From positions 1-59,449 of the IMG/VR virus record IMGVR_UViG_3300016265_001128: 59,449 bases of DNA. One strand, 5' to 3'. Numbering within the stretch: position 1 is the stretch's first letter; each line of letters starts with the position of its first letter. Positions 9,475 through 38,864 of the stretch are shown one piece after another. The notes below the pieces were generated by a model that made no database searches, was not told where the DNA came from, and worked only from the letters and a program-made list of their open reading frames with translations. The position numbers were made by a program, and so were the translations under genes. Source of the DNA: a virus (Duplodnaviria; Caudoviricetes).

Positions 9475-10472
9475 CCATCAGAGGCATCATCGTTCTAGAT
9501 GGGCCTGACGCATCTGGCAAGTCAACGCTTGCCAAGACGATGCAGGAACTCTACGGCGCCAAGATACTTCATGCCACCTACCGCTTTAAAAACAACATGT
9601 TTGCCTACCACACGGCAATCTTGAAAAAGGCTATTGCGGAAAGCCAAAAAGGTTTGGTTGTCATTGACCGCCTGTGGCTCAGCGAACAGGTCTACGCCAA
9701 CGTTTTTCGCGGGGGTAGCAAGTGGCCGCTTGCCGGTCGCTTTATCGATCGAATGCTCCTCAGGTTTGGGGCGTTGAACGTCATCTGCCTGCCATCGGCG
9801 GTCACGGTTTCTGTAGAAAACCACCGCAAAAACCTCGATCCCAGCCACCCGTACGATGACGATAAAGTCCGTGAGCTTTACGCCGGTTATGACGCGGCTT
9901 GGGGACGCCTGAAGTATCGACACGACTATGCTCGCTATAGCTTTGACAAGGACGGACAAAACACTTACGATTACGCGGACTACTTGGTCGTTCGGCTGAT
10001 GCAAGTTCAAGCCCTGCAACCGAATGACCTAGACGCCAGGCAGTGGCCGGAATTTCGCAACTTTGGAGGTTCGGTCAAATTGTCAAAGACGCTGATCGTA
10101 GGCGAACGGTCCAACCCAAAGTGGAACAGCGTCAACTGGCCGTTCTACGAGCACGGGAACTCAAGCCTATTTCTAGCAAAGGCGCTAGAAACGATTGGCG
10201 CCGGCGAACCATCCCTATGCTTTATGAACGCTGTAGAAGGCGGCCGTTTCCAAAACACTACTGAACTTTGGATTAGTCGTCTCGCTGAAACCAAGCGGGT
10301 GGTCTGCCTCGGCAACGTGGCCTATCGTACTGTCCGTCGGCTTGTGCCTGGAACGAAGCGAGTCAGGTTAGTTCCGCATCCGGCGTACTACCAGCGGTTT
10401 AAGGCCGCCGACGCCGTATCCTACGAGCGACTTCTTTGGGAGGCTATCAGTGACATACCATACGGCGACTGA
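9471..10472 (+). CDS. dNMP-kinase domain fused to a uracil-DNA-glycosylase-like domain
   Basis: N-terminal LDGPDASGKST and IDRLWLSEQVY; C-terminal LIVGER..., FMNA, VVCLGNVA, PHP pattern of the UDG superfamily. Confidence 0.8.
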   Translation: MTIRGIIVLDGPDASGKSTLAKTMQELYGAKILHATYRFKNNMFAYHTAILKKAIAESQKGLVVIDRLWLSEQVYANVFRGGSKWPLAGRFIDRMLLRFGALNVICLPSAVTVSVENHRKNLDPSHPYDDDKVRELYAGYDAAWGRLKYRHDYARYSFDKDGQNTYDYADYLVVRLMQVQALQPNDLDARQWPEFRNFGGSVKLSKTLIVGERSNPKWNSVNWPFYEHGNSSLFLAKALETIGAGEPSLCFMNAVEGGRFQNTTELWISRLAETKRVVCLGNVAYRTVRRLVPGTKRVRLVPHPAYYQRFKAADAVSYERLLWEAISDIPYGD

Positions 10473-11289
10473 CGCTTGGGTATACCTTTTGACTAACGTC
10501 GCAATTCTTGGCGAACGGCAAAAGCCCAGGGGACTCGAGACTCGAGAATTGCTGGGATACCAATTCCGAGTAGATATGGAGTATCCAGTGGTCAACGTCA
10601 AGGCCCGTGAATTAGGCTTTCGCTTCCTTGCGGCAGAAGCCTTCTGGATCCTAAATGGCGACAACCGCGTCAGCACCATCTCACCGTTTTCCAAAGCCAT
10701 CGCCAATTTCAGTGACGATGGCGTTTATTTTGCCGGCGCCTATGGACCTCGCGTGGTTGATCAATTGAGTTATGTCGTCGATCAGCTCGTTGCTGACCCC
10801 TCGACGCGTCAAGCCGTCTTAACGATCTGGCGACCCAACCCCAGGCCTAGTAAAGACATCCCCTGCACGATTGCCTGCCAGTGGCTTATTAGACCACACT
10901 GGGAAACCAAGGAGCCGGCGCTGTACTGCATTGACACGATGCGCTCGTCCGACGCGTGGCTGGGGGTGCCGTACGACGTCTTTAATTTCAGCCAGCTAAG
11001 CTTGCGCATTGCTCTGCTGCTGCGCAACCGCGGACTCCTAGTACGGCTAGGTGGTTTGGTTTTGCAGGCCGGCTCTCAACACCTGTACGAAAAGGATTGG
11101 GAAGCAGCTAGGAAAATCATCACGGGTCCTGGCCTTGATCCTGAGCCAGACCTCAAAGTCAATCCGCATTTCAAAGTGTCGGAATTTGCCGACCCCGAAA
11201 CGCATCTTGACTTCCTCAGCCACGCTCTTAACGACGGCAGATCTTGGTTTGAAGCGGCGTGGCCTGCTGAAGAAGGTTCACAAAAATGA
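10450..11289 (+). CDS. Thymidylate-synthase-family enzyme, predicted dCMP methylase/hydroxymethylase
   Basis: PRG, AYGPR, TRQAV, DIPC (catalytic Cys), MRSSDAWLGVPYD and HLYE; Asp at the E. coli TS Asn177 position. Confidence 0.85.
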   Translation: MTYHTATDAWVYLLTNVAILGERQKPRGLETRELLGYQFRVDMEYPVVNVKARELGFRFLAAEAFWILNGDNRVSTISPFSKAIANFSDDGVYFAGAYGPRVVDQLSYVVDQLVADPSTRQAVLTIWRPNPRPSKDIPCTIACQWLIRPHWETKEPALYCIDTMRSSDAWLGVPYDVFNFSQLSLRIALLLRNRGLLVRLGGLVLQAGSQHLYEKDWEAARKIITGPGLDPEPDLKVNPHFKVSEFADPETHLDFLSHALNDGRSWFEAAWPAEEGSQK

Positions 11290-11771
11290 CAAGCCGTATT
11301 TCCTTTGACGAGTACGCCATGAACTTGGCGTTCGTCGCCTCGTGGCGTGGAACCTGCGCTCGCCGACAAGTTGGCGCTGTATTAGTCAATCGCCGAAACC
11401 ACATTTTGGCCATTGGCTACAATGGGGTGGCTTCGGGAGTTGAGCATTGTCGTGGCTCTAACCCGCTATGCCCCGGGGCTCAGCTACCGTCTGGTACCGG
11501 TCTAGATCTTTGCGGAGCCATCCACGCCGAACAGAATGCGCTGCTGCAGTGTCGTGACGTCTACGACATAAAAACGGTTTACTGTACACTCAGCCCATGC
11601 TTACATTGCGTCAAGCTTCTGATGAACACCGGAGCTGAGCGCATTGTATTTGCCACGCCCTACGCCCATATTGAAAGCGAAGGCTTGTGGGTGTCAAGTC
11701 GAGCCGGGAGGCAGTGGGATTACTTCGACGCCTTCCTGCCGCCCGTCATAGGAAGAGCCGAGCTTGTCTAA
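11286..11771 (+). CDS. dCMP deaminase family protein
   Basis: C.RRQVGAV, GYNG, HAEQNA and SPCLHC Zn motifs. Confidence 0.92.
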   Translation: MTSRISFDEYAMNLAFVASWRGTCARRQVGAVLVNRRNHILAIGYNGVASGVEHCRGSNPLCPGAQLPSGTGLDLCGAIHAEQNALLQCRDVYDIKTVYCTLSPCLHCVKLLMNTGAERIVFATPYAHIESEGLWVSSRAGRQWDYFDAFLPPVIGRAELV

Positions 11772-17829: not shown

Positions 17830-19785
17830 TCAATCAGGGCTGTTAAACACGTCTCCAGACAAAAGCCCGAGGCCGCCAGCCGTGCCAATATACCGGTTGG
17901 CCACGCCTCTGGCTTGTCGCTCAATCTCAGCTTGCCGTTCGCCAAGTTGACGAAGCGTCGTTGCGCCGACGCCGCTGTCAGGCGTCGGGATCTGTCGAAA
18001 CAGCAAAGATCCAATCTCGTCTCGAACCGATGGGGGTAAACCAGCCGCCCGCAGCAAGGCGTTGTTAATGCCGTTACGAACGCCTTGAGACGGTTGGCCC
18101 TGCAATACACCTTTGACGATCCCGTTCATGGCACTCGTATCAACGTCTTCAGCCTTGGCGATACGCCGCGCTGTGGCAGGACCTCCCAGCACGCCGCGAG
18201 TTTCGTTAAAGCGGTTTTCGGTTGCCATCTTTGAGGCAAACCGCTCGAAGTCTTCCGGATCCTTAAACAGGACCCCAAGACGATCCCGCATGCCTCGGCT
18301 GTTCCAGAATCGAGCGATTTCGTTACCTGAGTCGCGGGTGTCCCGCATCATTGACCGCAAAGCCTCGGCGGCGCCAGCACGGAAATAGTCCCGCTGAACA
18401 GCCGTCAGGTCTCCAAACGCTTCGCGCAGTTCACCAGGTTGCATCTTGTGGAAATCACGCCCAGCGATCAGCGAGTCAAGCTCCCCAGACGGCATGCCAA
18501 ACTTGCGACGAGCCTCCTTAAATGCTGGGTTCACGTCATCGACGACGCTCAACATTTCGTTCTTTAAGGCTCGCAACGAGCGGGCGCGGCTCGGCGACGC
18601 ATTCTCTATCATCTCGTCAAGGCCGCGCTTGACGTAGTCGAGGTGCATGGTGTCGAGGCCACGGATTTGGCTTAGGTTGCCAGTTTGGTCGTAGACGTAC
18701 TTGATGTCGAGAGGATTACCCTCGTCAGCCGCGTACCGCTTGGCCTTGCTAAGCGCTAACTTGACCGAAGGCCTTGACAAAACGTTCTGCAAGATGCCAA
18801 ACTGATCTGGGCTCATCTTTGCAGGATCCGTAATCTCGCCAAACGAATAGGCCTGCTGGTAAGCCGGCGTCGACTCAAGTTCACGGCGGGCCTTGATGTC
18901 TTTAATCTGGGCGTAGTAATCCTTGCCTGCCGTCTTCGTCAGGTCTGAGTCAATAGCCCGATCAACGCGGACGTCTTGCCCCTCATGCCGCGCTTCAAGC
19001 ATCTCCTTGGCAATCGTTCGAGACTTTCCAGGCGCGTTAGCCACGCTATCGGCTAAGGACAACGTGGCTTCCTTGCCAGCATCAGCGATTGACGCTTCGG
19101 GACCCATCTGCCTCAGCGTGGCTTTCAGCTCGTCGAGGCTAATTTCGTCTCGCTTAAGATCACGAAGAAGTCGCTCCAATGCCTCTTTCTTGGCGTTAGA
19201 TAATCCCAGGGCCGTAATGGCCGCGTCCCAAGTCTTGCCGCCAACCGCCAACAAAGCGCCAGCGCCGGCAGACAACGCCGCTCCGGCGGTTCCGCCTACT
19301 ACAGCCCCTTCAGCGCGTTCGTCTGGATCAGCCCCGCCAGCGCCGGCAATAGCCCCGCTGATACCTCCAGCAAGTGGAACCTTAGCTTTCAGCGGCATTG
19401 CCTCGAGGGCCTTCTGGATCGGCTTACCGATCTTAGGGATGGCTCCAATGATCTTAGGGCCAAGTTTTGCCGCGGCTACTCCTCCACCGACGCCGCCGAT
19501 AATATCAGTAGCAATAGCACTGGCGGGATTTTCATCCTGCCAAGCGTTAATCTTAGCCCCTTCTTCAGCGACAGCCTCGCCTAACGGCTGGTCGGATGTT
19601 GCTGACTTTCCAACGGCGACAGCCTCATCGAGCCAGTTGCCGGTGACAGACTGGCCCAGCTGCCGCAGCAAGCCTTCCAGATAGTCAGGCTTATCCTTGA
19701 CTGGCTTGCCAGACTTCTTCTCCTCTGACAGGATGCGAATGGCCTCTTCGAGCTGTTCGGAAGTCAACGAGCTAAGATCAGCCAT
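17830..19785 (-). CDS. Putative DNA-ejection (internal virion) protein
   Basis: Large helical protein with Gly/Ala-rich TM-like segments; last gene of a podovirus-type structural operon. Confidence 0.65.
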   Translation of the reverse strand: MADLSSLTSEQLEEAIRILSEEKKSGKPVKDKPDYLEGLLRQLGQSVTGNWLDEAVAVGKSATSDQPLGEAVAEEGAKINAWQDENPASAIATDIIGGVGGGVAAAKLGPKIIGAIPKIGKPIQKALEAMPLKAKVPLAGGISGAIAGAGGADPDERAEGAVVGGTAGAALSAGAGALLAVGGKTWDAAITALGLSNAKKEALERLLRDLKRDEISLDELKATLRQMGPEASIADAGKEATLSLADSVANAPGKSRTIAKEMLEARHEGQDVRVDRAIDSDLTKTAGKDYYAQIKDIKARRELESTPAYQQAYSFGEITDPAKMSPDQFGILQNVLSRPSVKLALSKAKRYAADEGNPLDIKYVYDQTGNLSQIRGLDTMHLDYVKRGLDEMIENASPSRARSLRALKNEMLSVVDDVNPAFKEARRKFGMPSGELDSLIAGRDFHKMQPGELREAFGDLTAVQRDYFRAGAAEALRSMMRDTRDSGNEIARFWNSRGMRDRLGVLFKDPEDFERFASKMATENRFNETRGVLGGPATARRIAKAEDVDTSAMNGIVKGVLQGQPSQGVRNGINNALLRAAGLPPSVRDEIGSLLFRQIPTPDSGVGATTLRQLGERQAEIERQARGVANRYIGTAGGLGLLSGDVFNSPD

Positions 19786-21290
19786 TACTTAGAACCTCCG
19801 GCTTCACGACGAGCCTTCTCTTCCTGGAGCCGCTTAAGCAAGGCGGCAGGGTCTTCAGGAACTGGCGCTGCAGCTGGCGTCTTTACCCCAAAGAACTCTT
19901 TGTAGCTCTTGCGGTCTGGGTTTAGTTCAATTTTATCCGGCGCTTTAGGGTTAAAGATTGGGTTAGACGACAGGTACTTCTTCCAAGCCCGATCCCAGCC
20001 CAGCAGGTGACCGTTGACGGCACCGTAATCCCGCTTAAACTCCTCACGGTCAATAGCGTTCTGTGCTGCCTGCAGCCGAGCCCTGGCAGCCATTTCGTTG
20101 ACCTCTGGGGCATTCTTAGCCGACAAGGTCGCCTTGATGAACTGCTTAGCGTCGAAGTCAGAGGTAGCCCCTTCTCCAGGCTGACGCTCTTTGCGAGACA
20201 GCTCAGCCGTAATCTGCTCCATTCGCTGCAGCTTCTTGTTAAACATGGCCGCGCCCGCTTGAGCCGTATCGCCAAGCACGCCTGGCGCACGGAAGACCCC
20301 GCCAGTAGAGACTTCTTTGTTGAGTTCGGTAAACTCCTTGATTAGATCAATGGCTTGCTGATGCGTGGCCATCGCAGCCTCAGAACCTGAGAACTCCTTG
20401 TCCATCGCCTGCTTGTATTTCGACGACAGGGCTTCAGCCCCCTTGGGCGTCATGCCCTTAAAGGGGTTGATATCACTTATTGGAACGCCAAGAGCCTCAG
20501 CTAGCTTGGCATCGGGCTCGTAAACAAACTGGTCGTTCTGGCCTTTCAGCAGGAGCTTGTTCAGAGCTTCGGTAAATTCCGGTGTTCCCCGCTTATGACC
20601 CATGGCGATGACATTCTTGATGGCATCCGTATCTTTGCCCTCGGCGGCATCAGCCCTCATCTTGGCAATAGCCATGGCCACGCGCATCTTCTGCTGCTCG
20701 ATTGAGAGCTTGCTTTCAACGGGAGCCACGACTCGACCGGTGGTGGCATCGACGGCCCCGACGCCTGGAACGGAAATAATGTTTCTACCGACCGCCGCGG
20801 CCTTAATCAGCGCCAAGCCAGTCGAGACGTCTTCTTGGTTTTGTCCGTAGCCAAGCTTGGAAGCTTCAAACTTAGCCTTGGCTCCCTCCAAGTTTTCGCG
20901 ACGCACCATCTCCTGGTTACGGGCTAAAGCCGGCACCAGGGCCGTTCCGGCGTTGCCGAGACTTTCAAAGAAACTGCCGGTAACTGTGGGCTTCAGCATT
21001 GCCGAAGCCCAAGCCAAGATTGGGATGCCAGAATTGCTAGACCTCTGCTGGTATGCCGCAGTCATCTGGTCAGCGGCTTCTTGAAGCTTAGCCCTGGCAG
21101 CACCCTTGTCTCGCAGGCCGGAAAGTAGCTGCGATCCGCCAAGGCTAGTCAAGGCCCCGCGCATCGGAGCTGACAGACCCGCGGAATTTGATCCTGCTGA
21201 CCGTAGAGAGTCGTCAGAGAGCGTCGACAAACCTCCCGACGCTTCCGGGCTCTCGACGTCGTCTTCAAGCAGAAGATCTTCTGGATCCAT
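19785..21290 (-). CDS. Putative ejection protein
   Basis: Helical/coiled-coil; G..SDFD motif; position in operon. Confidence 0.6.
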   Translation of the reverse strand: MDPEDLLLEDDVESPEASGGLSTLSDDSLRSAGSNSAGLSAPMRGALTSLGGSQLLSGLRDKGAARAKLQEAADQMTAAYQQRSSNSGIPILAWASAMLKPTVTGSFFESLGNAGTALVPALARNQEMVRRENLEGAKAKFEASKLGYGQNQEDVSTGLALIKAAAVGRNIISVPGVGAVDATTGRVVAPVESKLSIEQQKMRVAMAIAKMRADAAEGKDTDAIKNVIAMGHKRGTPEFTEALNKLLLKGQNDQFVYEPDAKLAEALGVPISDINPFKGMTPKGAEALSSKYKQAMDKEFSGSEAAMATHQQAIDLIKEFTELNKEVSTGGVFRAPGVLGDTAQAGAAMFNKKLQRMEQITAELSRKERQPGEGATSDFDAKQFIKATLSAKNAPEVNEMAARARLQAAQNAIDREEFKRDYGAVNGHLLGWDRAWKKYLSSNPIFNPKAPDKIELNPDRKSYKEFFGVKTPAAAPVPEDPAALLKRLQEEKARREAGGSK

Positions 21291-21293
21291 GTT

Positions 21294-22178
21294 TTAGACC
21301 TTGCTTAAACCGTAGGCCGTGCCGACGGCGCCAGCCAGCTGCGCCAACGGAGAGGCTCCCATCGAAGTTGCCGGGGCGTTGGTGTTCGTCGACTGCTGCG
21401 TCGGCGGATTGAAGCCGCGGATCATCTGGTTGAGGAACTGCGCCTGCTGCTGCGGGTAGTTACGCTGTTCCAAGAAATCCTGATAGGCGACGTCTGCCGA
21501 CTTCTGACCCTGTTGCTGCTGCGTGTCGCCGACCGCCTGAAGGGCTGCGGCATCTCGCAAGCCAGCCTGTTGCGTTAATTGGCCGAGCGCCCCTAGCTGC
21601 TGACCAGCGTTGATTTTCTGCGTCTGCCCCGTCTGAAAGGCGTTCATCGCAGAGTTGTAGCCGGTGTTGAGCGCCTGCGTTTGGGCGTTCAGAATAGCTT
21701 CGTTGGTGTCGCGAAGAGCACGGCTAGTGAAGTCGCCCCAACGAGAACCACCAAACGTGCCAGAGCCGGTGAACGTGCTGTTGACCTGGGGCAGAAGCTT
21801 CTCGCTAAGGTTGCGAGCCCCCAAGGTGGCGATCTGATCAACGACGCCGGACGTATGCGGGTTAAGGTACCGCTCGAATTCATTCTGATTAAACCCGCCA
21901 GCTCCAGCCGACAAGGCCCCACCCGCTTGATCGGTGTACGGCTGATAAGAGCCTTGGTTGTTGCGAACGGCGTCAAAGGCCGCATTTTGGTCGGCATTGA
22001 GCGGCGCAACGCGTGGTTGCGTGTACGGCTGAAAAGGCTCAGCGGCAATGGCGTTGGACTTGCCAAGCAGTCCTCGCAGATACTCCTGATACCAATCAGG
22101 CATGCTCGTCTGGCTGACGGTCGCAGAGTTAACGTTTTGCGGAGGGCTTCCCTCAAACAGGAAATCCAGGACAGCCAT
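21294..22178 (-). CDS. Putative ejection protein (Gln/Ala-rich)
   Basis: PDW, Y..PRVAP, YLNP, GTFGGSR and hydrophobic C-terminus typical of podovirus DNA-transfer proteins. Confidence 0.7.
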   Translation of the reverse strand: MAVLDFLFEGSPPQNVNSATVSQTSMPDWYQEYLRGLLGKSNAIAAEPFQPYTQPRVAPLNADQNAAFDAVRNNQGSYQPYTDQAGGALSAGAGGFNQNEFERYLNPHTSGVVDQIATLGARNLSEKLLPQVNSTFTGSGTFGGSRWGDFTSRALRDTNEAILNAQTQALNTGYNSAMNAFQTGQTQKINAGQQLGALGQLTQQAGLRDAAALQAVGDTQQQQGQKSADVAYQDFLEQRNYPQQQAQFLNQMIRGFNPPTQQSTNTNAPATSMGASPLAQLAGAVGTAYGLSKV

Positions 22179-22181
22179 TGC

Positions 22182-23612
22182 TTATGCTCCAGCCAGATAG
22201 GCAAGCGGGGATCGAGCCTTAGGAGGATATTTCCCATGGCCCGTCTTCTGTTGACGAATTTGGTTTAAGGCCTCGTCTAAACGCTTAGCCCCAGACTCGC
22301 TAGAACCATCGCCAAGGTGAGCCACGACATCTGCCGGGATAACGTACTCCCCGACAGACAGCCTCGCTGGCACGGTGTCATCTTGGCCTCCCGCTGGTGC
22401 AGCGACTTGAGCCAAGCCGCCACGCTTCATGGCTTGCGGGGCTCGCGGATCAATAAACGTAAATGATGGACCCTGGCCATATCTGTAGATGTCGCCCGAA
22501 TAATCGTAGCGCTGGCGAGCCTGCGGGTTTGACGAGTTGACGTACTGATACGACGGCAACGGCGATCTGAATAGCGGGTCGGCTTGAGGCTGCACCGCCG
22601 ACTGAGGCTTCTTTTTACCGGCCCTTGAGGCCAATGCCGTGATTAGACCGAGAGCCCCCACCGTTTGCAGCGGGTTGCGCGTGATCGTTCCGCCGATGCT
22701 TTCGCGAAGACCACCGAGGTCGGAAATTCTTTCTAGGAAAGGCCGGTTGTCTTCACCAACCCCAAGAGGAAATTGCATAGCCGTGTTAGACGTAGGCCCA
22801 GGCGAGTTGACGCTAAACCGCATGGGTCCAGTGGCAGGTTGGTCGAATCCGCCAAATTGAGGAGGTGCGGCTGATGCCGGAGGCCCGTACATTTGATCCT
22901 GGTAACCTGCAACCAGCGCATCTGGCGCATCGTAGCCAGAAGCGTCAAATATTGCGTCGTCATACGGATCAGCGCCATAGGTCAAGTTGCCCATAGGCGT
23001 CGTCGAGCCGCTAGGTGCCATTGCCAACGAGGACAACGTGCCAGTTGGCGTAGAGACCGACGCTTCTCCAGTATTGACAACGGTTTCAGGACTTGGGCCT
23101 TCAGAAGCAGCCCCTTTAATCCCGGCCGACAAGCTGCCCGTCATCGCGCCAGATAAGGCAGCCTCCAGCGGATCTTGACCTGTGACCGCCGTTCGGCCGA
23201 GGCTCGACAAGCCACCGACCAAGGCGCCGTTACCGATCGGGCCTAGGTTGATGCCCATTTCTGGCAGAGCCGCGCCAATGCCAGCTCCAAGGCCTCCAGA
23301 CAAGGCCCCGCCAAGGACACCTTTGCCAATGCTGCCGCCAGTCAGACTAGAGCCAAGACCACTCAGGCTGCCGCCAAGAATTGCTGAGCCAAGGATCGAA
23401 GCGCCGGTACCAGAGGCTCCAAGGGCGGTACCAATTGCTGTACCAAGGCCAGGGGCAAGAACCGATAGCGCAATCGGGGCCGCCATGGATGCGATAGACG
23501 CCACGCCACCACTTTTCTTCCCCTTGAACCGGTGGCCTAGGGAAGTTGACAGTTGCGGTCTATAGGCGTGCGTGGTGTGGCGGCGCTCGTGCGCTAGTAC
23601 GCTATGGATCAA
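22182..23612 (-). CDS. Putative ejection protein with Gly-zipper hydrophobic N-terminal domain
   Basis: TTG start with GGAGG RBS directly after the acyltransferase stop; FKGKKSGG; long GxxxG segments; C-terminal GGQDD.VPARLS.GEYVIPADVV. Confidence 0.7.
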   Translation of the reverse strand: MIHSVLAHERRHTTHAYRPQLSTSLGHRFKGKKSGGVASIASMAAPIALSVLAPGLGTAIGTALGASGTGASILGSAILGGSLSGLGSSLTGGSIGKGVLGGALSGGLGAGIGAALPEMGINLGPIGNGALVGGLSSLGRTAVTGQDPLEAALSGAMTGSLSAGIKGAASEGPSPETVVNTGEASVSTPTGTLSSLAMAPSGSTTPMGNLTYGADPYDDAIFDASGYDAPDALVAGYQDQMYGPPASAAPPQFGGFDQPATGPMRFSVNSPGPTSNTAMQFPLGVGEDNRPFLERISDLGGLRESIGGTITRNPLQTVGALGLITALASRAGKKKPQSAVQPQADPLFRSPLPSYQYVNSSNPQARQRYDYSGDIYRYGQGPSFTFIDPRAPQAMKRGGLAQVAAPAGGQDDTVPARLSVGEYVIPADVVAHLGDGSSESGAKRLDEALNQIRQQKTGHGKYPPKARSPLAYLAGA

Positions 23613-24062
23613 CTATTCCTCCGACGCGCGCGTGGGTCGTATGCTTAAGCGGACGTAACGTTCGCCCTTCTCGCGGTAAAAGTAGACTTGGCGGAAGCCT
23701 TGGTTGGCTAGGGCACCAGCTACGTGCTTTGCGATTTCCGCGCCATGGCCAAACGGCGCGATCAGGTCGACTAGCCACGCCTCTTTTCCAGAGACCCAGT
23801 CGGTAGGGCTCCACTGCTTGGAGCCATCGAGAATACCCTCGCTCGTCTCTGGCGTTGTAAAAGCAATCGAGACAAAGCCAACAAGGTCATCCTCGATATA
23901 GTACGTATACCCCTGTCGCCATGCAAGAGGCGGAACGATCAGGTTCTTAAAGTCTGTCTCATCGTAATCCTGATGGGACTTTGATTGCGAGACTAACTTG
24001 GTAACAACCTCTAGCTCGTATATCGAGCAAACTTGGGGGCGTAAACCTATCTTGGTTGTCAT
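23613..24062 (-). CDS. RTX-toxin-activating lysine acyltransferase (HlyC/TAAT family)
   Basis: S27-x-x-H30, IVPP...Q, VGF...A and DW.SG..AWLVD99LIAPFGH match the HlyC/ApxC family. Confidence 0.85.
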   Translation of the reverse strand: MTTKIGLRPQVCSIYELEVVTKLVSQSKSHQDYDETDFKNLIVPPLAWRQGYTYYIEDDLVGFVSIAFTTPETSEGILDGSKQWSPTDWVSGKEAWLVDLIAPFGHGAEIAKHVAGALANQGFRQVYFYREKGERYVRLSIRPTRASEE

Positions 24063-24089: not shown

Positions 24090-24317
24090 CTAAATTACAA
24101 ACGTTTCCTTCACTCGAGCGGCCCAGTCCTGCCAATCATCAAACATCGTAGGTTGCGGAACCCCGGAATACCCCGACTGTTCGTAAACCCTGGCGGCCCA
24201 ATCTTGCCACGGTTCAAACGGAGCTGGTAGAAACAAGCCAGCCGCTTCAACCAGGCGAGTTCCCCAAGTCTGAAAATCAGTTGCGTACGGATCAAGAATG
24301 ACAGCGGTATTGCTCAT
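24090..24317 (-). CDS. Small Trp-rich virion-module protein
   Basis: WQDWA twice; coupled to upstream gene. Confidence 0.7.
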   Translation of the reverse strand: MSNTAVILDPYATDFQTWGTRLVEAAGLFLPAPFEPWQDWAARVYEQSGYSGVPQPTMFDDWQDWAARVKETFVI

Positions 24318-25837
24318 TGGCGCGCAGATCCGATTGACAGGTGAAGAAGCGGTTGACCCATTTGGTAGTTGCCGCCGGCCACATTGCTCTCAAACTTAAT
24401 ACGCATCTGGCGGCGCTGCTGGTTGATGTCAAACTTCTCTGTAGTGGGATCGAAGTAGTAGACTGTTTCCTGAGTTTCAGTCGACTGCGCATACTTCTTA
24501 CCAAGGATGGTAGCCGTCATTTGACCAGTTTGGACAAAGTCAGGCTCAATGCGATCAATGCGAGTCCAGCGGTCAACACCAATCCAGCTTTCGCCAGGAC
24601 CTGAAGCACACCAAGAAAGATCGCATGTCGTAAAGTACGATTGAATGGCCTGGGCTTGGTTCTCTATCACCTGATCCACGCCAGTCTCGTGGACCCAGAG
24701 ACGGTACGTATCGGCTGCCGTCGGGTCAACGCCAAACCATAGCGGGTTCCTGAAAACTTGCGAGAAGTAACCGCAAGACCTAGCGATCGATGTGTCATAC
24801 CACGTGCTTTCGCGAACGTTGTAGATGACGGCTCTACCGCACTCGGCTTGGTTCATTGTCGGATAGAACCACCAGATTTCGCCATACCTGGGAACCTTGG
24901 TGCCCCAGACTTTTTGGCGCTGCGAGAAATTCAGATTGTCGAAGAACCAATTAAGGTTCATCTGGTTTGGAACTTCCCTAACAACCCCGTTATACACCAA
25001 GAACCTGTCAACGGCTGGCCAGAAGAACAAACCGTCATACTCAATCACCGCCGACGAGGACAGGATTGACATTTCGCGAGCGACAGTGTCAACGTTGAAA
25101 ACTGAGTCGCCTCCGGTGTAACTTACGCGTAGCAAACAATCCAGCGACCAAAAGAGACCAGAAGGTGCTGTCGTGCCACCTGCTCGGCTATGCGCCCCGT
25201 AGACAATCTTTTCAGCCGTAACTCGAGCAGAACCGGCATCGCCGGTTGCAAAGTTTGTTGGCTCGTTGACGTTGCTCCAAGCAAGGTACCCATCGTTACC
25301 ATAGACAAAAAGATACTGACCAAGCACACAGGCTCCGCCGCTAACGCTTTGACCTGTCGATGTTAGTGCCGCAGTACCGTAGATATCTCCGTAATACACC
25401 GGGGTGTCAACGTCAGACGCAATGCTCGCAAGGTTTTGACCAGCGTGCGCGATAAGCACTGAGCCACTACCGCCGGCGTCGAACATTGAGTCGAATTGCC
25501 AAACGTTGAGGTCACTAGTGGCAAATCCTGAAGGTGTCCGGTCGATTAGGCCAGAGACAGAACCGTCTGGAAAGATCGTCAGCTTCTCAAGCACTTCAGC
25601 CGAGCCGGCGTACACGTCGATGGCGTCGTTGGCCGAGCTGACAAAACACCCGCGCACTGGGCCGGCTAGGGCATCAGTGATCTGTTGGTAACCGCCCATC
25701 TTACGAGGAAGACCTCGCTGAAAACGACACCATTGCCCGTCTAGATAGAAATTGCCCTCAAACTCCGTGCCATCCCGCTTAATACCGGGTTTGGTCGTGA
25801 TCGGAAAAACGTCTTGTTTAGGAGGCTGTGGAGGCAT
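24314..25837 (-). CDS. Putative tail nozzle / DNA-stabilization protein (P22 gp10-like position)
   Basis: Beta-rich; RF..G.P.KMGG, WS, EIWWFYP and YN...W motifs. Confidence 0.65.
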   Translation of the reverse strand: MPPQPPKQDVFPITTKPGIKRDGTEFEGNFYLDGQWCRFQRGLPRKMGGYQQITDALAGPVRGCFVSSANDAIDVYAGSAEVLEKLTIFPDGSVSGLIDRTPSGFATSDLNVWQFDSMFDAGGSGSVLIAHAGQNLASIASDVDTPVYYGDIYGTAALTSTGQSVSGGACVLGQYLFVYGNDGYLAWSNVNEPTNFATGDAGSARVTAEKIVYGAHSRAGGTTAPSGLFWSLDCLLRVSYTGGDSVFNVDTVAREMSILSSSAVIEYDGLFFWPAVDRFLVYNGVVREVPNQMNLNWFFDNLNFSQRQKVWGTKVPRYGEIWWFYPTMNQAECGRAVIYNVRESTWYDTSIARSCGYFSQVFRNPLWFGVDPTAADTYRLWVHETGVDQVIENQAQAIQSYFTTCDLSWCASGPGESWIGVDRWTRIDRIEPDFVQTGQMTATILGKKYAQSTETQETVYYFDPTTEKFDINQQRRQMRIKFESNVAGGNYQMGQPLLHLSIGSARQ

Positions 25838-27045
25838 CAGGTCACCCAAAACGGCATCAAGCAGCCAGACGAAACGTTAACCGAAGTCAACCGACCCTGA
25901 GCGTCGACAACAAAACCAAGCTCGCCGTAGGTGCCAGGAGTCACAGCCGTATTAGCAAGGCTGATAGTGCCTGAGCCTGTGATTGGGCCGCCAGTCAAAC
26001 CTGTGCCAGTTGCCACAGACGTGACGGTACCACCGCCACCTTCGTCTGGGTCAATAATGTCGGTACCGTCGCAGGCGACCATCTCCCAGGTGCCTTGAGC
26101 AATCTCAAGTCCCGTCCCAGCAGACGTCTTGACAGTCAACGTATAGGCCCCGGTCGTATTGTTGTAGATCCAATAGACGGCAGCATTCGTTGGCTCAATA
26201 ACATTAATGTTACCGGTCAAGGTGCCCGTAAACTCTTGAAGCTGGTTAGCTGCTTGGGCAGAGGTTAGGGTAACATCAGTGTTACCGGCAACTGACAACG
26301 TGAGCTTAGACACCGTCACCGTCGGAGATTGCCCAAGGCCAAGCGTGTAGAACGAGGTGCCGCCGCAGATGATGAAACAGGCGTCGCCCGGGTTCATTGT
26401 CAACGAAGACTCTCCGTCGATCGTCCCTTGCGGATCAACAGTAAGAGCCCCAGAACCAGAATTGCTGACGCCGATAAACCAGTTGTTGCCTAGCGTGGCC
26501 GCGGCCGTAAGGGTCAAGGTTCCCACGCCGGCCGTCCAAGCAATCAGGTTAGCCCTGTCGTTGACATTTGCGGTATACGCGCTGTTTTTGGTAACAACGC
26601 TAAAGCTTTGGTTCAGTAAGCCCGCAGCCGCAACCAAACCAGCTCCTGCCAAGCTAGCGGCGTCAACGTAGCTAGCCCCAACTCCAAACTGTAAGGTTCC
26701 CCAAGTGCCAGCTGCCGTTGAATTAGTCTTGATGTACGTATAATAGGCTTGGCCGGCACCGACAGTGCAGATGGTGCCGCCAGCGTTGTCGAGGACGCTG
26801 AAGGAGTATGCCCCCAGGTTCCTCCAAATCGTATCGTAGCCAACTCCAACGTTACGAGCATCGTCTAACGTGATCGTATAGCCGCCCGCAGACGGTGTGA
26901 CGTCCATGATGCGAGCAACAACGTCGTCCGTGTCGACATATTCTTGTGGCCACAGCAGGTCAATACTGGCAGTTAACGCGATGCCTCGGTAAGCAACTTC
27001 CGAAGCAACGACTGGAGAACCGCTAAAGACGTCTGTATACGGCAT
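25837..27045 (-). CDS. Putative tail fiber / tail structural protein
   Basis: Thr/Gly-rich beta repeats; GTVTSV.TGTGLTGGPIT.SGTISLA and DAQGRLTS. Confidence 0.6.
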   Translation of the reverse strand: MPYTDVFSGSPVVASEVAYRGIALTASIDLLWPQEYVDTDDVVARIMDVTPSAGGYTITLDDARNVGVGYDTIWRNLGAYSFSVLDNAGGTICTVGAGQAYYTYIKTNSTAAGTWGTLQFGVGASYVDAASLAGAGLVAAAGLLNQSFSVVTKNSAYTANVNDRANLIAWTAGVGTLTLTAAATLGNNWFIGVSNSGSGALTVDPQGTIDGESSLTMNPGDACFIICGGTSFYTLGLGQSPTVTVSKLTLSVAGNTDVTLTSAQAANQLQEFTGTLTGNINVIEPTNAAVYWIYNNTTGAYTLTVKTSAGTGLEIAQGTWEMVACDGTDIIDPDEGGGGTVTSVATGTGLTGGPITGSGTISLANTAVTPGTYGELGFVVDAQGRLTSVNVSSGCLMPFWVT

Positions 27046-38444: not shown

Positions 38445-38864
38445 TTAGACGAACGCTTTGATCGTGCGGGGGTCCACGGTGACGTGGCCGATCAGCTCGT
38501 GGTCATTGAAAATGACGAAAAGGGCCTCATCGTCGCCCCCTTTGCCAGGGATTTTGACGGCCCAACGGTCACCGCCAAATTTGGGCACGCGAACGTAGTC
38601 GCCGACGCTCGCCCAGGCGCCTTCCGGCCAAGGTTCGAGCGAATCGCGCTTCTTAAAGGCCAGCGGGCCAATGGCGCGAACCTTTGCGACAGTCGTGTTC
38701 CACTTTTCGACGTCCACGGCGTCAGCGACGATGATAATGCCGCCCTTTGACTTGGTCGCCGGGGTCCGGATTTGGACAAGGACGCGATGGCCGAGAGGCA
38801 GAACGCCCGGATCTAGGTTCGGGAACGCGTCGTCCATGCTTTGGTATTCGTCAAGCGCACTCAT
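38445..38864 (-). CDS. groES: GroES-like co-chaperonin
   Basis: PLGHRVLV, SKGGII, V.AIGP, VGD.V...K.GG and ND. Confidence 0.85.
   Translation of the reverse strand: MSALDEYQSMDDAFPNLDPGVLPLGHRVLVQIRTPATKSKGGIIIVADAVDVEKWNTTVAKVRAIGPLAFKKRDSLEPWPEGAWASVGDYVRVPKFGGDRWAVKIPGKGGDDEALFVIFNDHELIGHVTVDPRTIKAFV

Follow-up and report, generated by a model that had tools for sequence, protein, structure and literature searches.

We analysed a virus genome recorded in IMG/VR as IMGVR_UViG_3300016265_001128 (Duplodnaviria; Caudoviricetes), which spans 59,449 bp, carries direct terminal repeats and has an estimated completeness of 100%; this whole stretch is referred to below as the window. On its minus strand, a gene for a 149-amino-acid (aa) protein is followed directly by the gene for a membrane-type protein, here named X, and we report that the first of the two encodes a bona fide toxin-activating acyltransferase (TAAT), a member of the HlyC/ApxC family, within the ejection-gene block of a phage. 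The TAG stop codon of the TAAT gene (23613-23615) abuts the TTG start codon of X (23610-23612), and the GGAGG ribosome-binding site of X lies inside the TAAT gene (Table 1). An initial annotation, made from the DNA sequence, had described this abutment, the internal GGAGG and the acyltransferase motifs, all of which were confirmed, and had proposed that the enzyme lipidates X, as the first ejected protein, for delivery of the phage DNA.

A TAAT gene within a phage ejection module

The 149-aa protein is a member of the TAAT family and not a generic GNAT acyltransferase. Comparison with PF02794 and ApxC, which the initial annotation had suggested as the means of telling the two apart, gave a match to PF02794 (HlyC) at E 1.5e-16 and 60.9 bits against a cut-off of 25, aligning residues 20-134 to profile positions 5-120 of 127; this match was also recovered in a six-frame search of the genome, and the PHROG match of the protein is phrog_20210. 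ApxC (4WHN) was the sole PDB sequence match below E 0.01 (phmmer, E 2e-6), through an alignment that covers the D-W-x-S-G...W-x-x-D-x-I-A-P-F-G block and in which D99 falls in the W-x-I-D-x-I-A-P-F-G block of ApxC. Furthermore, an AlphaFold2 (AF2) model built on 30 homologues reached a predicted local distance difference test score (pLDDT) of 90.2, and its best PDB matches in Foldseek were three 4WHN chains (E 1.8e-7, TMq 0.69-0.71), ranked above generic GNATs.

Both expected motif blocks, S27-x-x-H30 and D88-W89..S91-G92..W96..D99..I101-A-P-F-G105, are present in the enzyme. Within a 30-sequence alignment (A1), S27 is invariant, while conservation is 90% or higher at H30, W89, W96, D99, A102 and P103. 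Members of the family use a His/Asp dyad for catalysis (His24 in ApxC; His37/Asp107 in CdiC, as given in the available text of PMC8510554), H30 being equated with the catalytic His via the family alignment and not by superposition. The enzyme is intact and probably active. Genes for acyl carrier protein (ACP; PF00550) are absent from the complete genome, hence the acyl donor would be host acyl-ACP. The statement in the initial annotation that the genome holds neither an RTX toxin nor type I secretion genes stands for the first part, the RTX repeat (PF00353) being absent from the complete genome; as to the second part, no type I secretion gene is named in the PHROG annotation of 57 open reading frames (ORFs), with no search aimed at such genes.

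An exhaustive HMMER search identified 555 TAAT relatives at E<=1e-3, none beyond about 40% identity save the query itself, and a word-index protein search returned only the query among eight candidates. A quick tree of 53 TAATs was largely unresolved, with the window TAAT grouping only with one sequence, P0005 (SH-aLRT 94). No NCBIfam model matches either the TAAT or X. Searches of 50,697 phage records by tblastn with five TAAT queries returned only Roseobacter phage CRP-235, or nothing; cultured TAAT phages are thus very rare in this collection. Also among the relatives were a 988-aa fusion with a C-terminal TAAT domain at residues 861-955 (P0028), a 633-aa fusion of an N-terminal TAAT domain with a methyltransferase domain and a QueC-like region (P0071, order as listed), a 412-aa tandem TAAT (P0056, order as listed), and two proteins with Lys/Ala-rich N-terminal tails (P0105 and P0127).

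The ORF list and PHROG annotation place the enzyme in a co-directional minus-strand block that runs from the tail fiber gene through the genes of the 511-aa and 75-aa proteins, the TAAT, X, and the 294-aa, 501-aa and 651-aa proteins (Table 1). The PHROG neighbours, namely a virion structural protein, a tail fiber protein and a DNA ejection protein, bear out the earlier assignment of this region as an ejection-gene module. A counterpart of the 75-aa ORF, with 75-79 aa, often directly precedes X in related viruses, and in Caulobacter phage RW this position is held by the 78-aa gp67c. Elsewhere in the genome, PHROG annotation names a DNA polymerase, primase, helicase, large terminase, portal, GroES-like protein and endolysin. 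The GroES-like co-chaperonin is encoded at 38445-38864 (-; phrog_3188, E 2.8e-6), and in the available part of a study of HTVC023P-type pelagiphages a figure legend lists GroES alongside HlyC (10.1101/2019.12.14.876532). Thymidylate synthase and dCMP deaminase genes are located at 10450-11771 (+), and the complete genome contains no tRNA genes.

Table 1. Coordinates of the genes and sequence features of the ejection module in the window.
Feature	Position	Strand	Basis
Tail fiber gene	25837..27045	-	PHROG match
511-aa virion structural protein, opens module	24314..25849	-	phrog_3287, E 3.7e-30
75-aa ORF upstream of TAAT gene	24090..24317	-	ORF list
TAAT (HlyC/ApxC-family) acyltransferase, 149 aa, ATG start	23613..24062	-	PF02794; phrog_20210
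GGAGG ribosome-binding site for X, within TAAT gene, 5 nt before TTG	23618..23622	-	Read from sequence
X, 476 aa, Gly-zipper membrane-type ejection-module protein, TTG start	22182..23612	-	ORF list
K30-G-K32-K33 of X, just ahead of first hydrophobic helix	23514..23525	-	Sequence, alignment
GxxxG-rich helical region of X, residues 38-170	23103..23501	-	Alignment, AF2 model
AGKKK of X, K333-K335, after short hydrophobic helix 315-328	22608..22616	-	Sequence, AF2 model
Conserved C-terminal domain of X	22185..22421	-	Sequence comparison
294-aa 'DNA ejection protein', gene after X	21294..22178	-	phrog_4287, E 2.5e-19
501-aa ejection-module protein	19785..21290	-	Module position
651-aa protein, last gene of module	17830..19785	-	phrog_5880, E 1.4e-51

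Protein X and the gene slot ahead of it

X contains FKGKKSGG (with K30, K32 and K33) directly ahead of a hydrophobic GxxxG-rich region, and AGKKK follows its second transmembrane (TM)-like segment, the helix at residues 315-328; both features are present as initially described. A Kyte-Doolittle TM-like segment covers residues 34-65, and AF2 places helices at residues 38-63, 69-90, 95-115, 125-144 and 148-170, in a low-confidence model (pLDDT 42.6) that is too poor for fold searches. X has no PHROG match at E<=0.01 and no Pfam match at E<=1, and no sequence match was found between X and the established ejection-protein families (phrog_805, the internal virion protein (IVP) IVP-B of T7 gp14 / P22 gp7 type). 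An ejection role for X and its presence in the virion are suggested only by gene position and by the phrog_4287 neighbour.

X belongs to a family of hypothetical proteins, with 556 matches at E<=1e-3 among 8000 scored candidates, whose members are typically 570-640 aa long and encoded on contigs of 50-65 kb. In an alignment of the family (A3), a Gly-rich helical region is followed by a middle that varies and a C-terminal domain that is conserved; the stretch P46-G61 of X, at the start of the Gly-zipper region, is nearly invariant. The C-terminal domain is common to Caulobacter phage RW gp66c and to short stretches of tape-measure-type PHROGs. The AGKKK cluster has no Lys-rich counterpart in the aligned homologues. 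These homologues carry an extra N-terminal domain of about 170 residues, of which X retains only the last ~30; the first ~135 residues are missing, and the TAAT gene occupies the corresponding position. The residual leader of X (residues 1-33) aligns with the end of this ancestral domain, which suggests that the TAAT gene replaced the 5' part of a longer gene. Because the residual N-terminus still aligns with homologues, X would be translated from the coupled TTG.

Of the 81 genomes or loci of the X lineage, only the window has a TAAT, whose gene sits where the lost N-terminal residues of X would have been encoded, a pattern that might also reflect a recent passenger insertion that truncated the 5' end of the X gene and serves no role for the phage. 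We consider this very unlikely: the TAAT ORF is undisrupted, retains every conserved residue and has a confidently predicted fold, a ribosome-binding site links it precisely to X, and what is left of the X N-terminus has kept its similarity to the homologues.

The slot ahead of X was surveyed at 80 viral loci encoding X relatives, each with up to 8 kb of flanking sequence. At 22 of these loci (21 under a strict rule, plus L192), a GNAT of 144-165 aa is encoded directly upstream of X and overlaps its start (e.g. L132:7112-7561). These slot GNATs match phrog_4470, 'acyl-CoA N-acyltransferase', at E 1e-19 to 1e-25, and two of six tested passed the Pfam Acetyltransf_3 cut-off; their PHROGs category is 'moron, auxiliary metabolic gene and host takeover'. 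Comparisons by hhalign of the GNAT profile with T7 gp13, and of GNAT with TAAT, gave probabilities of about 1% or less. Across the 80 loci and the window, occupancy of this slot varies: some loci have it empty, others have a GNAT there, and the window alone has a TAAT.

TAAT genes and tagged partners across viral contigs

A search of a viral contig collection with a degenerate DNA pattern for the conserved TAAT block matched at least 119 stretches; D, A-P and G are fixed positions of the pattern, which biases the sample to TAATs that keep this block. Nearly all matched stretches were true TAAT ORFs, with 112 hidden Markov model (HMM) matches including the window, counts that like the others from this survey hold among the matches listed. 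Removal of the duplicates L003, L023 and L131 left 110 loci, and setting aside 11 with fewer than 150 nt downstream left 99 that were informative. At 83 of the 99, the downstream ORF that abuts or overlaps the TAAT gene on the same strand has a tract rich in Gly, Ser and Asp within its first 70 residues; at 15, the window among them, the abutting ORF lacks the tract, and one locus has no abutting ORF. By comparison, of the 283 other ORFs in these loci with 150 aa or more, 14 have the tract. Many contigs are near-duplicates, and at the level of informative clusters at 50% TAAT identity the tract is present in 18 of 25. The combination of a TAAT and a tagged partner is very common in uncultured viral contigs, many of them marine, with gp30/gp29 of Roseobacter phage CRP-235 as a cultured example of the TAAT module.

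The core of the tag, [M/Y/F/W]-x-[G/S]-[D/E]-[G/S/P], is located at the extreme N-terminus or after a leader of 12-45 residues that usually ends in Cys-Tyr/Phe. The largest partner group conserves the leader M-V-R-S-Y-L-I-E-N-R-I-C-[Y/F], and the middle of the protein is hypervariable. Most partners are acidic and lack TM-like segments, X being a clear exception. When the 64 complete partners with 200 aa or more are compared past residue 80, they separate into 18 groups without a BLAST link at E<=1e-5, which indicates that the tag travels with the enzyme. We also performed a reverse search from the C-terminus of the largest partner family, a criterion independent of the TAAT, and found a TAAT directly upstream at 65 of 67 informative loci (64 scored, plus L235 with its over-long ORF call; 11 further loci had no room upstream, and one yielded no partner), with several contigs shared between this search and the pattern survey. 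Two members of this partner family (L283 and L289) start with M-C-G-G-G and have no TAAT in their 3-kb flanks. Pairs were identified in IMG/VR contigs L012-L130 and L212-L290, an example being L019:5746-7310.

Small, very Lys-rich basic proteins are encoded beside some TAATs that have no tagged partner (L057:4092-4364, L009:4221-4574, L011:1503-1661 and L096); these could be lysine-acylation substrates or DNA-binding internal proteins. On another contig classed as viral (L034:5692-6219), downstream of the TAAT lies an ORF, 1463 aa or longer, whose N-terminus resembles, by eye, the secretion domain of filamentous hemagglutinin/CdiA, and this pair may be a CdiC-CdiA system rather than a phage module.

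TAAT-partner pairs are a common and tightly linked feature of phage morphogenesis modules. On contigs of about 33-35 kb, of which L019 is the type, the order is TerL, portal, TAAT, partner and, further on, the major head protein, while L009, L015 and L072 have portal, TAAT, partner, scaffold and capsid. The L072 partner (L072:2411-5881) is a protein of 1156 aa with a cell-wall hydrolase domain of amidase type (phrog_1794, E 6.9e-10), which fits an ejected, envelope-attacking internal protein. One contig, L006, repeats the order of the window, from phrog_3287 through TAAT and partner to phrog_4287. BLASTP gave no match between X and this partner, and between X and the partner on L005 only a 13-residue Y-R-Y-G-x-G-P motif at E 0.045. 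In a T7-like block, the capsid gene is followed, after other genes, by those of a 689-aa protein, a gp13 homologue (phrog_308), a 208-aa protein, the TAAT, its partner, and proteins of 196, 437 and at least 1059 aa.

The last arrangement bears on whether the TAAT might be a factor in morphogenesis resembling T7 gp13 (IVP-A), either non-catalytic or working at the acetyl level, that loads ejection proteins without being retained in the virion and without attaching lipid. According to the available text of Hardies et al. (PMC4819975), the internal virion protein operon of podoviruses opens with a small non-structural gene that consistently precedes IVP-B and matches acetyltransferases in T7 and in most phiRIO-1-like phages, the IVP-A of T7 being needed for morphogenesis yet absent from the virion. 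The statement in the initial annotation that a small GNAT-like gene often precedes podovirus ejection genes is borne out by this account, and by the GNATs ahead of X relatives. IVP-A (T7 gp13 and the P22 and epsilon15 homologues) and the window TAAT are alike in being small, presumably non-structural genes of acyltransferase fold directly before the first ejection gene (PMC4819975, available text). Furthermore, a Tyr replaces the catalytic His, at the position of H30, in 15 of 85 unique phage TAATs among the matches listed; the Asp is kept in all of them, as forced by the search pattern. The window TAAT nevertheless retains Ser, His and Asp, and it matches phrog_20210 and not phrog_308, the family to which T7 gp13 was confirmed to belong. 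The T7-like marine contigs hold both a gp13 homologue and a TAAT, indicating that the TAAT is not simply IVP-A. An hhalign comparison of alignment A1 with T7 gp13 gave a probability of 0.5% and hence no sequence relation, in what is a weak test against a single-sequence template. The portions available of PMC4819975 describe no substrate or catalysis for IVP-A, whereas TAAT family membership implies long-chain acyl-ACP rather than acetyl-CoA chemistry. Given this evidence, a gp13-like role is distinctly unlikely.

The tag of the partners has no conserved nucleophile, which is as compatible with a docking function as with a substrate site. Structural modules may also encode enzymes that are injected as cargo, as with T4 Alt. 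The TAAT might thus target a host protein or other host molecule, serving takeover, counter-defence or the exclusion of superinfecting phages; it would act inside the infected cell or, docked on the tagged internal protein, travel into the next one. Such a role would be in keeping with the host-takeover category of the slot GNATs. Characterised TAATs, however, act on a cognate protein, which in the CdiC system is encoded next door (PMC8510554, available text), and linkage as tight as 65 of 67 is simpler to explain by an enzyme and its substrate; we regard a host target as unlikely. The linkage between TAATs and their partners is explained most economically if the two are enzyme and substrate, with an internal or ejected protein being lipidated.

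Candidate lipidation of ejected proteins and its relation to known systems

For this genome, we tentatively favour, as the best explanation, fatty acylation of X by the TAAT. The enzyme would be produced alongside the ejection proteins in the late phase of infection and, with host acyl-ACP, would attach a fatty acyl chain to X; X would be packaged into the virion and then ejected, and the lipid would help it to lodge in the host envelope or pass through it as the DNA is delivered. In this genome, X ranks first among the candidate substrates because its gene abuts that of the enzyme and is translationally coupled to it. The choice of X over a neighbour as substrate, the acyl donor, the acceptor residue, the presence of X in the virion and the role in entry are all points that we infer, and this genome is an atypical member of the TAAT-carrying phages, for which the case rests on synteny and motifs.

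Several observations weigh against this explanation. Using an HMM from alignment A1 (E<=1e-2), no TAAT was found at any of the 80 loci encoding X relatives. In Caulobacter phage RW, searched with CRP-235 as positive control, there is an X homologue and no TAAT. No acyltransferase is encoded upstream of X at 56 of the 80 loci, where the 75-79-aa ORF is often found instead, implying that X works without lipidation in most relatives. Loci searches with the single TAAT, with its nearest relative P0005 and, in metagenome contigs, with a three-sequence alignment provided no close TAAT relative in which conservation of the TAAT-X pair could be checked. X is among the 7 of 25 informative TAAT clusters without the tract, and it lacks the tag core as well, its closest look-alike being F-K-G-K-K-S-G-G, which is basic and not acidic. 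Lysine is not conserved in the tag of the partners, nor is any lysine invariant in nine aligned members of the largest partner family, which raises the possibility that another residue accepts the acyl group or that the enzyme acts on something other than the partner. Finally, basic residues ahead of the TM helix are also present in X homologues without a TAAT (alignment A3) and are ancestral to the family, and the FK-GK-K motif is accordingly not specific to TAAT coupling. Our confidence is modest because X has no tag, the TAAT is unique in the X lineage, and the aligned partner family has no conserved lysine.

The initial annotation had expected an N-proximal GK motif and a Gly zipper to accompany phage TAATs. 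This rule found no support in the survey of X relatives, and the synteny survey pointed elsewhere, the partners of other phage TAATs carrying an acidic Gly/Ser/Asp tag and being mostly not hydrophobic. Its more general idea of a lipidated ejection protein gains from the tagged abutting partners (83 of 99) and from the linkage in the reverse search, while the specific site beside the Gly zipper does not; we judge acylation at K30, K32 or K33 of X to be improbable.

The absence of a tag from X also directs attention to its neighbours. An N-proximal Gly/Ser/Asp tract was flagged in 3 of the 82 window ORFs, two of which are antisense to annotated genes, leaving the 501-aa protein as the only plausible gene product with this feature. 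Its gene lies in the same co-directional module as the TAAT gene, and the enzyme could lipidate this protein, or another virion or ejection protein, with X merely the next gene. The 501-aa protein nevertheless lacks the core motif, and in other phages the tagged protein is encoded by the gene that abuts the TAAT and not two genes away; we regard such a substrate as distinctly unlikely.

Considered beyond this genome, phage TAATs and their tagged partners may form a widespread, undescribed and virus-encoded lipidation system, in which the enzyme recognises the acidic Gly/Ser N-terminal tag and the acceptor is perhaps not lysine; we view this as possible, if rather doubtful. Such a system would operate in many uncultured marine podoviruses and sporadically in other lineages, such as this phage. 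That phages lipidate proteins they inject is suggested, not proven, by the recurrence of TAAT-partner pairs.

The way in which ejection proteins of short-tailed phages enter and cross the envelope of Gram-negative cells is still not well understood. If true, a virus-encoded lipid-attaching enzyme acting on an ejected protein would constitute a new principle of phage entry, and would account for the frequency with which a gene of acyltransferase fold heads the block of ejection genes. Annotations of HlyC in phages exist for HTVC023P-type pelagiphages (10.1101/2019.12.14.876532, available part) and in the record of Roseobacter phage CRP-235. We found no paper that proposes or tests acylation of phage ejection proteins, in a literature search with thin coverage of subscription journals that is not proof of absence. 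In their available text, a 2022 review of ejection proteins (PMC8954989) contains no occurrence of acyl, lipidat, myristoyl, acetyl or post-translational, and the phiGT1 paper none of acetyltransferase, GNAT, acyl or lipid. The presence of a TAAT in the cultured CRP-235 makes the lipidation idea directly testable.

The window enzyme and the TAATs of RTX toxins (HlyC, CyaC, ApxC; PF02794; 4WHN) have in common their Pfam family, fold, Ser/His/Asp residues and small size, and in both cases the gene lies immediately upstream of that of a membrane-active protein, as in the hlyC-hlyA gene order. They differ in that the window enzyme has 149 aa, and many phage versions 130-137 aa, compared with 170-183 residues in ApxC chains, and in that it is phage-encoded in an ejection module, in a genome without an RTX toxin, with a putative substrate unrelated to the acylated domains of RTX proteins. 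TAATs take the acyl group from acyl-ACP and place it on the epsilon-amino group of particular lysines in their cognate protein. RTX TAATs lipidate their protoxins from acyl-ACP, while CdiC, a TAAT encoded directly upstream of cdiA, transfers 3-hydroxydecanoate onto a Lys of CdiA and promotes binding to the outer membrane of target cells (PMC8510554, available text). The CdiC-CdiA pair of class IV contact-dependent inhibition, the one characterised TAAT system outside the RTX toxins, thereby provides a precedent for a TAAT co-opted for a delivered protein that is not an RTX toxin, in a role like that proposed here; CdiA is a bacterial type V secretion effector with proven acylation (PMC8510554, available text), whereas the candidate in the window is a phage protein with putative acylation. 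Because CdiC acts on CdiA, an RTX substrate is not strictly defining for the TAAT family, and lipidation of ejected proteins, if true, would extend its substrates from RTX toxins and CdiA to virion proteins.

The picornavirus VP4 and reovirus mu1N are myristoylated internal capsid proteins that leave the virus particle during entry and become inserted in the target membrane to deliver the genome. Their acylation is a myristoylation of the N-terminal glycine by the host N-myristoyltransferase. A lipidated ejection protein would, if true, represent the bacteriophage counterpart of VP4 and mu1N, with the difference that the phage brings its own enzyme, from a different branch of the GNAT acyltransferases.

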